From NCBI RefSeq assembly GCF_048403405.1, contig NZ_CP183129.1: 64,000 nt of DNA; one strand, given 5' to 3'. Below are positions 18,926-19,167 of the stretch, one piece after another. The notes below the pieces were generated by a model. It made no database searches. It had not been told where the DNA came from and was given only the letters and a program-made list of their open reading frames with translations. Position 1 is the stretch's first letter. Each line of letters starts with the position of its first letter. The DNA comes from Escherichia coli (GTDB taxonomy: Bacteria > Pseudomonadota > Gammaproteobacteria > Enterobacterales > Enterobacteriaceae). The translations under genes were made by a program, and so were the position numbers.

Positions 18926-18989
18926 AAGAACACCTGAGCCTGCCATTGGCAGGCTCTGACTGATGACAAAGTCTAAAAATGTGCCCGGC

Positions 18990-19100
18990 CAGTCCCCTCG
19001 CCCCTCCGGGGAGAGGGTTAGGGTGAGGGGAACAGACCAGCAAAGTGCGCTTTGTTTATGCCAGATGCGACGCTGACGCGTCTTATCTGGCCTACAAAGG
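18990..19100. repeat. BIME/REP-type extragenic repeats between convergent gntP and fimH
   Basis: GC-rich palindrome CCCCTCGCCCCTCCGGGGAGAGGGTTAGGGTGAGGGG followed by the REP unit GCCAGATGCGACGCTGACGCGTCTTATCTGGCCTACA. Confidence 0.5.
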
Positions 19101-19167
19101 GCTAACGTGCAGGTTTTTAGCTTCAGGTAATATTGCGTACCTGCATTAGCAATGTCCTGTGATTTCT

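Follow-up and report, generated by a model that had tools for sequence, protein, structure and literature searches.

Repeat elements in the gap between the convergent genes gntP and fimH of Escherichia coli: a terminator-type hairpin, a BoxC block, REP345 and the remnant of a second REP

Elements of the gap

In the 64,000-nucleotide stretch of Escherichia coli DNA analysed here (the window, part of NZ_CP183129.1), the gntP ORF (17582-18925, + strand) and the fimH ORF (19168-20079, - strand), both given with their stop codons, converge on a gap of 242 bp between the two stop codons (18926-19167). The gene names are those that RefSeq gives in MG1655 and in a stretch with 100% identity, and coordinates were converted by the relation window = 4,568,878 - MG1655 position, which was checked on fimH, REP345 and TMECO 23. 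The 242-bp gap is 100% identical in strain TUM14771 and 97.5% identical in K-12 derivatives such as TG1. Four inverted repeats were found within it, and the RNA folding of the whole gap was compared with that of shuffled sequences on the two strands, giving z = -4.9 and -5.9 with none of 200 shuffles equalling the natural sequence. A preliminary description had named a REP unit and a GC-rich palindrome within a convergent gap of about 240 bp, and both are present in a gap that folds beyond its shuffles. The elements discussed below are as follows.

18936-18956, no strand assigned: locus-specific hairpin with a perfect 10-bp stem (GAGCCTGCCA / TGGCAGGCTC), 10 nt past the gntP stop codon
18957-19039, + strand: BoxC block of 83 bp, in which the TMECO core lies between a leader (TGACTGATGACAAAGTCTAAAAATGTGCCCGGCCAGT) and a tail (AACAGACCA)
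18995-19030, + strand: BoxC / PIT / TMECO core CCCTCGCCCCTCCGGGGAGAGGGTTAGGGTGAGGGG, of type A and with a single triplet mismatched; listed in K-12 as TMECO no. 23
19040-19059, + strand: right part of a BIME-1 'A'-type flanking motif, GCAAAGTGCGCTTTGTTTAT
19060-19095, - strand: REP (palindromic unit) of z2 type, GTAGGCCAGATAAGACGCGTCAGCGTCGCATCTGGC, which is REP345 of MG1655
19096-19115, no strand assigned: linker between REP345 and the former second REP, AAAGGGCTAACGTGCAGGTT, conserved in all alleles
about 19116-19139, + strand: remnant of a second, inverted z1-type REP, reading TTTAGCTTCAGGTAATATTGCGTA in the window and recognised through the alleles of other strains
19108-19145, no strand assigned: stem of 7 bp with a loop of 24 nt (TGCAGGT...ACCTGCA), not significant (z = -1.9 / -1.1)
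19188-19295, + strand (gntP polarity, antisense to the 3' end of fimH): in-vitro Rho site, from the literature only and outside the gap

The gap contents, namely a terminator-type hairpin, REP345, BoxC (missing from roughly half of E. coli strains) and a decayed second REP, are ordinary repeat DNA that has already been described. When the identities of these parts are judged jointly with the inferred history and the inferred function set out below, the gap is probably best explained as a mosaic in which a single locus-specific hairpin is combined with three segments of familiar dispersed E. coli repeat DNA.

The GC-rich imperfect palindrome lies at 18993-19031, with 11-nt arms that are 91% complementary. 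The core within it, at 18995-19030, fits the published consensus CCCTCNCCC-N3-6-GGGNGAGGG-N3-GGGNGAGGG[G/T/C/-] and is letter-for-letter identical to TMECO no. 23, one of the 23 consensus-matching TMECO copies of K-12 (PMC4666352). Table 1 of that paper places this copy at MG1655 4,549,883-4,549,848, and Table S2 gives its distances as 137 nt to fimH and 70 nt to gntP (Holder et al. 2015, PMC4666352). By chance, zero matches to the exact BoxC core are expected. The palindrome is thereby ruled out as a REP/BIME unit, being BoxC, which is a different repeat family. Its RNA hairpin has a folding energy of -25.7 / -22.5 kcal/mol and a z of about -2.1, which is marginal once the G+C content is considered. 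In BLAST searches the 83-84-bp block behaves as a dispersed repeat with a median of 16 places per E. coli genome, and paralogs of the block were found in five other intergenic regions (sstT-alx, gcvP-ygfF, fepB-entC, yijF-gldA and pstA-pstB). The copies at the first four of these are two-armed composites of ~150 bp with a second, inverted core of type B, and the gntP-fimH copy corresponds to the left, type-A arm only of such a composite. Earlier work on BoxC/PIT by Bergler, Bachellier and Hoyne/Maher is cited in PMC4666352.

REP345 together with its left flank spans 19040-19102. The REP palindrome at 19057-19094 has 17-nt arms that are 82% complementary and is extended by 19047-19055 / 19094-19102, where the CTTTGT of the A-type flank pairs with the ACAAAG beyond REP345 to form a longer REP stem; the extended hairpin (19044-19105) has folding energies of -32.3 / -30.0 kcal/mol with z = -6.0 / -6.7. 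The definition of a REP includes a conserved GTAG tetranucleotide 5' of the stem foot, and 584 REPs have been reported in K-12 (PMC3333891); on the - strand the GTAG stands at the stem foot of REP345 (GTAGGCCAGAT..., 19095-19060). Compared with a z2 consensus that is built on only three z2-like copies in the fetched loci, REP345 has three substitutions, two of which make up a compensated stem pair (T>A / A>T, turning CCTGAT...ATCAGG into CCAGAT...ATCTGG) and one of which is a loop base. The Rfam model naRNA4, which was built from REP hairpins, aligns to REP345 with its hairpin 2 at 30.7 bits (E = 0.0017), a score that lies below the gathering score because only half of the model is present. 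The supplement of a 2026 preprint on the function of REPs (bioRxiv 10.64898/2026.03.23.713779) lists REP345 at MG1655 4,549,784-4,549,819 as 'Convergent, fimH, gntP'. REP345 is found in all nine different allele sequences that were aligned, with at most one loop substitution in each. A strict REP regular expression returned only two REPs over the 64-kb window, one of y type at 14340-14373 and the one at 19060-19095, and 218 kb of other Escherichia loci contained 50 y-like and 40 z1-like REP copies. The element at 19060-19095 is a genuine REP that shows every defining feature tested (the palindrome, the GTAG, the class match, and an extragenic and repeated occurrence). The preliminary description had proposed comparison with REP consensus sequences, where the lack of a match to any REP family would speak against it; the z2 sequence, the GTAG, the naRNA4 score and the REP345 listing are all such matches.

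The flank of REP345 was characterized from a scan of one genome per species with the REP345 left flank as the query, which returned many paralogous Escherichia loci. The A-type consensus TTCAGATTGTTGACAAAGTGCGCTTTGTTTAT, derived from 32 copies in Escherichia genomes, always stands directly 5' of a REP. The paralogous loci have the layout of BIME-1, with TTCAGATTGTTGACAAAGTGCGCTTTGTTTAT, a y-type REP, ACAAAA, a linker of the AATTCAATATATTGCAG type and often an inverted z1 REP in succession. At approximately 20 of the 27 non-tandem REP loci, a strong locus-specific hairpin ends 0-3 nt ahead of the A motif.

The second REP is known from the alleles of other strains. The window allele (allele A) keeps only TAGCTTCAGGT and scores at random level against the z1 consensus at 19113-19135, so that on its own it is unrecognisable. 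In an alignment of alleles A, B and C, the region around 19116-19139 reads GTAGGTCTGATAGCGTAGCGCCTCAGGTA in allele B and GTAGGTAGCGTAGCGCATCAGGCA in allele C. Allele B agrees with the z1 consensus GTAGGCCTGATAAGCGTAGCGCATCAGGC, derived from 40 copies, at 25 of 29 positions, which none of 20000 random segments did as well, and allele C, which keeps GTAGG and the 3' 17 nt, was equalled by three of 20000. Among 5426 complete E. coli genomes, this right-hand patch is of the allele A type in 4271 and of the allele B type in 516. Since other alleles of the locus still carry an inverted z1-like REP 22 nt away, the locus is, at best, a decayed and atypical BIME composed of a z2-like REP, a 22-nt linker and an inverted z1-like REP. 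With one recognisable REP, the window allele falls outside the definition of a BIME, into which allele B of other strains does fall. Neither the IHF core nor the BIME-1 L-linker motif (WATCAANNNNTTR, AATTCAATATATTGC) occurs on either strand of the gap, and the locus does not have the BIME-1 (RIB/RIP) composition of y and z1 units with an L linker and IHF site: its first unit is z2-like and only the A-type flank is common to both. The label 'REP/BIME cluster', under which the gap was first described, therefore holds for one genuine REP in a decayed BIME and does not extend to the GC-rich palindrome.

The stem at 19108-19145 arose incidentally as the second REP decayed, and its structure is not conserved. 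MG1655 has A for T at the position of 19142, which places a mismatch in the middle of the stem, and only 27 genomes are at least 99% identical to the window over 19100-19160. This stem was also considered as a terminator for fimH and was rejected, being not significant, devoid of a U-tract and mismatched mid-stem in most strains.

The gap might alternatively encode a product of its own, such as a small RNA from the 3' UTR of gntP or fimH or a small protein, and its strong structure on both strands, the stable hairpin RNAs (naRNAs) that are produced by the REP325 cluster and the existence of a 44-aa ORF (18909-19043, - strand) are compatible with this. Against it, no Rfam family reaches the gathering score in the gap, where matches to Antizyme_FSE and MIR5638 were rejected as chance matches to GC-rich hairpins, and in the whole window only isrN, far from the gap, was found. 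No 3' ends are mapped to the gap (see below). RefSeq annotates no feature in the gap of MG1655 or of the other genomes inspected; this absence is itself uninformative because the current MG1655 record is without any REP feature across the 50 kb examined. The 44-aa ORF was rejected as a gene, as it begins with TTG, overlaps the BoxC repeat and is lost wherever the block is missing, in at least 1581 genomes. A product encoded by the gap is thus highly improbable.

Allelic variation and history of the gap

Two length variants of the gap were distinguished. The long allele, as in the window, was recognised in 2826 of the 5426 genomes by coverage of at least 80% of the 242-bp gap. The short allele, as in strain NT1F25, has a gap of 173 bp in which 14 bp, TGTTCGGATTGTCG, stand in place of the 83-bp BoxC block, and a probe for its junction identified at least 1581 of the 5426 genomes, including O157:H7 and ST131-type strains. 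The corresponding 56-nt junction probe for the long allele recovered 2316 genomes; it undercounts because SNPs in BoxC break the megablast seeds, and the figure of 2826 is used here. Approximately 1000 of the 5426 genomes are in neither junction count, owing to SNP-broken seeds, other alleles or a missing locus. TMECO 23 had already been scored as variable, with 'no change' in only 20 of 56 genomes (Holder et al. 2015, PMC4666352).

The length variants and the alleles of the right-hand patch occur in all four combinations, which are long with A (the window, MG1655), long with B (95NR1, G3/10), short with A (NT1F25) and short with B (JKHS006). Since complex indels are unlikely to recur identically, exchange has occurred within a stretch of ~80 bp that includes REP345. 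The preliminary description had called the gap a possible recombination site: the two independent indel polymorphisms and their four combinations show that recombination or turnover has happened across it, which is unremarkable among 5426 genomes and does not demonstrate a hotspot.

In the short allele the A motif is complete (TCGGATTGTCGGCAAAGTGCGCTTTGTTTAT) and stands directly past the hairpin, and the 14-bp filler is therefore the A-type motif of the locus itself, the left half of which is replaced by the BoxC block in the long allele. The leader of the BoxC block is A-like at 13 of 15 positions, a match equalled by 13 of 20000 random segments, and this likeness would have made homology available for a replacement event. 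Because the short allele has the canonical layout of hairpin, A motif and REP, and because the BoxC leader is A-like, we lean towards an insertion or replacement into a pre-existing BIME flank as the origin of the BoxC indel; the short allele could also have arisen by deletion, as Holder et al. assume. An outgroup scan in which the REP flank was the query yielded REP loci of E. albertii, E. whittamii and others that are paralogous, and a single orthologous locus, that of E. coli E69. This sequence, the only divergent orthologue recovered (93% identity), carries the BoxC block and thus the long allele, from which it follows that the long allele, and hence the event, is old.

The history that we propose begins with a layout of hairpin, A motif, REP, linker and inverted REP, the arrangement that BIME-1-type elements usually have where transcription units end. 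In one allele lineage the left half of the A motif would later have given way to a BoxC half-element, and small deletions would have worn down the second REP along at least three separate routes. Recombination may then have shuffled the long and short states with the states of the REP remnant.

The same polymorphisms can be read in another way, in which the BoxC core forms a triplex on its G-rich strand and, by stalling replication or repair, creates a deletion and recombination hotspot beside fimH, a locus under diversifying selection. TMECO oligonucleotides of type A and type B form stable intrastrand purine-motif triplexes in vitro, and TMECO loci vary more than control intergenic regions do across 56 genomes, TMECO 23 showing 'no change' in only 20 of them (PMC4666352); the two indel polymorphisms, the SNP-rich BoxC copies and the four-gamete evidence of exchange in the gap would also be in keeping with such an effect. 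However, no triplex was detected in vivo by DMS footprinting, and PIT elements were without in-vivo effect in earlier tests (PMC4666352). Presence/absence variation is expected equally from the insertion of a mobile or gene-converted repeat. Furthermore, the second polymorphism lies ~85 bp past the end of the BoxC core (19030), in a REP, and REPs and BIMEs are themselves known sources of polymorphism (PMC3333891). A triplex-driven hotspot is for these reasons unlikely, and we retain the replacement of part of a BIME flank by a BoxC half-element as the favoured explanation of the indel.

An apparent interchange of BoxC with a REP element is seen at a second site. BoxC composites and BIME-1-type REP elements have the common leader (C)AGAyTGnTGACAAAGT and both stand directly 3' of locus-specific terminator hairpins, and past the gcvP terminator E. 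coli has a BoxC composite where E. whittamii and other Escherichia have a y-REP. On the basis of this common leader, the same position past hairpins and the mutual replacement at one site (gntP-fimH, gcvP), it is conceivable, if rather improbable, that the two kinds of element share an entry point and perhaps a mechanism of mobilisation or conversion. If this were true, BoxC would be non-autonomous and carried along by the REP/BIME system, and not an unrelated 'triplex motif' that destabilises its neighbourhood. Bachellier et al. reportedly described boxC insertions next to BIMEs in 1997, which partly anticipates the interchange of BoxC and BIMEs.

Transcript ends and possible functions

The hairpin at 18936-18956, which like that of REP345 is significant when folded by itself, has folding energies of -17.9 / -18.2 kcal/mol (z = -5.3 / -4.4) and is kept in both the long and the short alleles, that is, in every allele examined. 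It is single-copy, a 56-nt query containing it having a median of one place per genome. A terminator consensus scan returned three sites in the region compared with 1.0 +/- 0.9 in shuffles, and the hairpin is terminator-like on the - strand, with AGGUGUUCUUUUAC following it in the fimH direction. Read in the gntP direction, on the + strand, it has the stem without a U-tract and was not flagged by the scan. Judged from its sequence, it is the best candidate for an intrinsic terminator of the fim operon, with a 3' UTR of ~230 nt.

In the mechanism that we propose, transcripts of the fim operon would end at this hairpin with its U-rich tail, and their 3' UTR would carry the REP and BoxC hairpins. 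Transcripts of gntP would read through the hairpin and BoxC and would then be paused at REP345, or trimmed back to it as a barrier to 3'-exonucleases. The gntP RNA that reads through might be released by Rho just beyond REP345, inside the antisense strand of fimH. An in-vitro Rho site is listed at MG1655 4,549,583-4,549,690 (- strand) in the 'NusG minus' and 'NusG plus' sets, carrying no in-vivo flag, in the supplement of bioRxiv 10.64898/2026.03.23.713779, which places it 94-97 nt beyond REP345 in the gntP direction. BoxC would add a further GC-rich hairpin, probably with no dedicated transcriptional role and as a passenger; BoxC/PIT elements had no promoter or terminator activity in the published tests summarised in PMC4666352. 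By analogy, REP345 and the first hairpin probably define and protect the 3' ends of the mRNAs, and the insulator or mRNA-stabiliser role suggested in the preliminary description is plausible for REP345 by analogy with REP325 and from genome-wide trends. The repeats as such may in essence be selfish or neutral passengers, for which the space between two convergent genes is permissive.

Among the 3' ends of MG1655 curated from Term-seq in LB and M63 (Adams et al. 2021), none falls at 4,549,6xx-4,550,0xx and fimH has none assigned to it. For gntP that set has one entry, a Rho region at 4,551,233 (+), which is ~1.3 kb away and antisense to gntP. The lack of Term-seq ends in the gap is probably due to the poor expression of gntP and fimH in these two media.

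A more symmetrical arrangement has also been considered, in which both palindromes are REP/BIME units of one BIME cluster that insulates the two convergent transcription units both ways. In its favour, there is one true REP, and in its ancestral state the locus carried two inverted REPs. The presence of REPs between convergent genes correlates with higher expression of both partners, and predicted bidirectional terminators contain 78 REPs. However, the GC-rich palindrome is BoxC, a single REP is recognisable in the gap, the linker is without an IHF site or L motif, and in the part of the supplement of bioRxiv 10.64898/2026.03.23.713779 that was covered REP345 is named only in lists of in-vitro Rho sites nearby. 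We regard a BIME cluster acting in both directions as quite unlikely and prefer the mosaic of a fim-directed hairpin and repeats of different families.

The importance of these observations goes little beyond the correct annotation of the gap. As fimH encodes a major adhesin and is a typing locus, its natural 3' UTR alleles, with or without BoxC and with differing REP remnants, offer ready material for asking whether repeats of this kind adjust the amounts of fimH or gntP mRNA. REP345, TMECO 23 / BoxC and the variability of the locus in 56 genomes are known from the literature; only mildly new are the detailed anatomy of the gap, the frequencies of its alleles among 5426 genomes, and the observation that BoxC leaders resemble BIME A-type flanks and apparently interchange with them.

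Comparison with known repeat families and terminators

The block at 18957-19039 corresponds to the element known as BoxC, PIT or TMECO (Holder et al. 2015, PMC4666352), with which it shares an identical core, an intergenic, multi-copy and dispersed occurrence, and a presence that varies between strains. No difference exists in the core; the published unit is 36-56 nt long, whereas 83 bp are conserved here, comprising a leader of ~38 nt, the core and the tail.

REP345 resembles the z2 class of REPs (PUs) in being an imperfect palindrome of 36 nt with the GTAG at its 5' foot (- strand), an internal mismatch and the stem-loop GACGCG-(T)CAG-CGTCG, and in its extragenic position at the 3' ends of genes. 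It differs in that it follows an 'A'-type flank, which accompanies y-type units in the other copies fetched. The likeness of the locus as a whole to BIME-1 consists of the A-type left flank right after a gene-terminal hairpin, a REP with an inverted z1-type REP in alleles B and C, and a single copy at the 3' end of a gene, whereas the z2-like first unit in place of a y unit, the linker of 22 nt without the IHF core or L motif, and the destruction of the z1 unit in the window set it apart.

The hairpin at 18936-18956, finally, may be compared with the bidirectional intrinsic terminators that lie between convergent genes, of which a sequence-based set of 306 in E. coli is cited in bioRxiv 10.64898/2026.03.23.713779. 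As in these, a single GC-rich hairpin stands between the two genes, and its A-rich 5' side, AAAAGAACA, forms a U-tract on the other strand. The U-tract serves the fimH direction only, however, and in the gntP direction the hairpin is followed by UGACUGAUGAC in the long allele and by UGUUCGGAUUGU in the short allele.

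Alternation of BoxC and REP after gcvP

The gcvP terminator hairpin AAAGGCGCTTCGGCGCCTTTTT has different neighbours in different genomes: downstream of it, E. coli LP5-1 carries a two-armed BoxC composite (locus L005, positions 380-520), and E. whittamii, like two more Escherichia genomes, carries a y-type REP (loci L032, L042 and L045). As judged from these sequences, gcvP is a second site at which BoxC and REP alternate.

Variation within the gntP-fimH gap

NT1F25, which has the short allele, shows a single case of an A-to-G change in the hairpin after gntP (L002, 566-586, compared with window 18936-18956), from TGGCAGGCTC to TGGCGGGCTC; the change keeps a U-G wobble in the gntP-sense RNA and creates a C-A mismatch in the fimH-sense RNA. 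The BoxC copies in the gap differ between strains by many SNPs, for example CCTCTCGCCCCTCT, GGGGTGAGGG and GAAAAGACC, when the alleles of other strains (L046 and L047) are compared with window 18957-19039; in the same alignment, a single loop position is variable in the adjacent REP345.

Other elements of the window

Two further elements were located:

14340-14373: y-type REP GCCGGATGCGGCGTGAATGCCTTATCCGGCCTAC, at the position of REP346 of MG1655, between uxuB and uxuR
46934-47075, minus strand: isrN, an Hfq-binding sRNA, as a full-length Rfam match (136.9 bits, E = 4.6e-30)

isrN is the sole Rfam family to exceed its gathering score within the 64-kb window. A bicyclomycin-sensitive, i.e. Rho-dependent, termination region was reported at MG1655 4,551,233 on the plus strand (Adams et al., 2021), which corresponds to about window 17645 on the minus strand; it lies on the strand of the fim operon, where it is antisense to gntP in that gene's 5' part, and could be the point at which fimH read-through, or an antisense transcript inside gntP, comes to an end.

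The BoxC leader, gene-terminal hairpins and BIME-1

The type A BoxC copies, in the gap and at loci L004, L005, L006 and L008 elsewhere, share a leader of about 38 nt, the 5' start of which is (C)AGACTGATGACAAAGT (window 18957-18973 for the copy in the gap). In the gntP-fimH copy, 13 of 15 positions in the leader start match the BIME-1 A-type flank TTCAGATTGTTGACAAAGT of REP loci L015-L045, a score reached by 13 of 20000 random window segments; for the other four BoxC copies, the same comparison gave 32, 112, 1512 and 102 such segments per 20000. The BoxC and REP/BIME families may have an entry site or mechanism in common.

In about 20 of the 27 non-tandem Escherichia REP loci (among L015-L045), a strong hairpin ends 0-3 nt 5' of the A-type motif, and these hairpins are locus-specific, with a different sequence at each locus and energies of -12 to -25 kcal/mol; BIME-1-type elements thus lie flush with gene-terminal hairpins. 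The gntP hairpin at 18936-18956 shows the same flush placement as the BIME-1-type loci of other Escherichia genomes.
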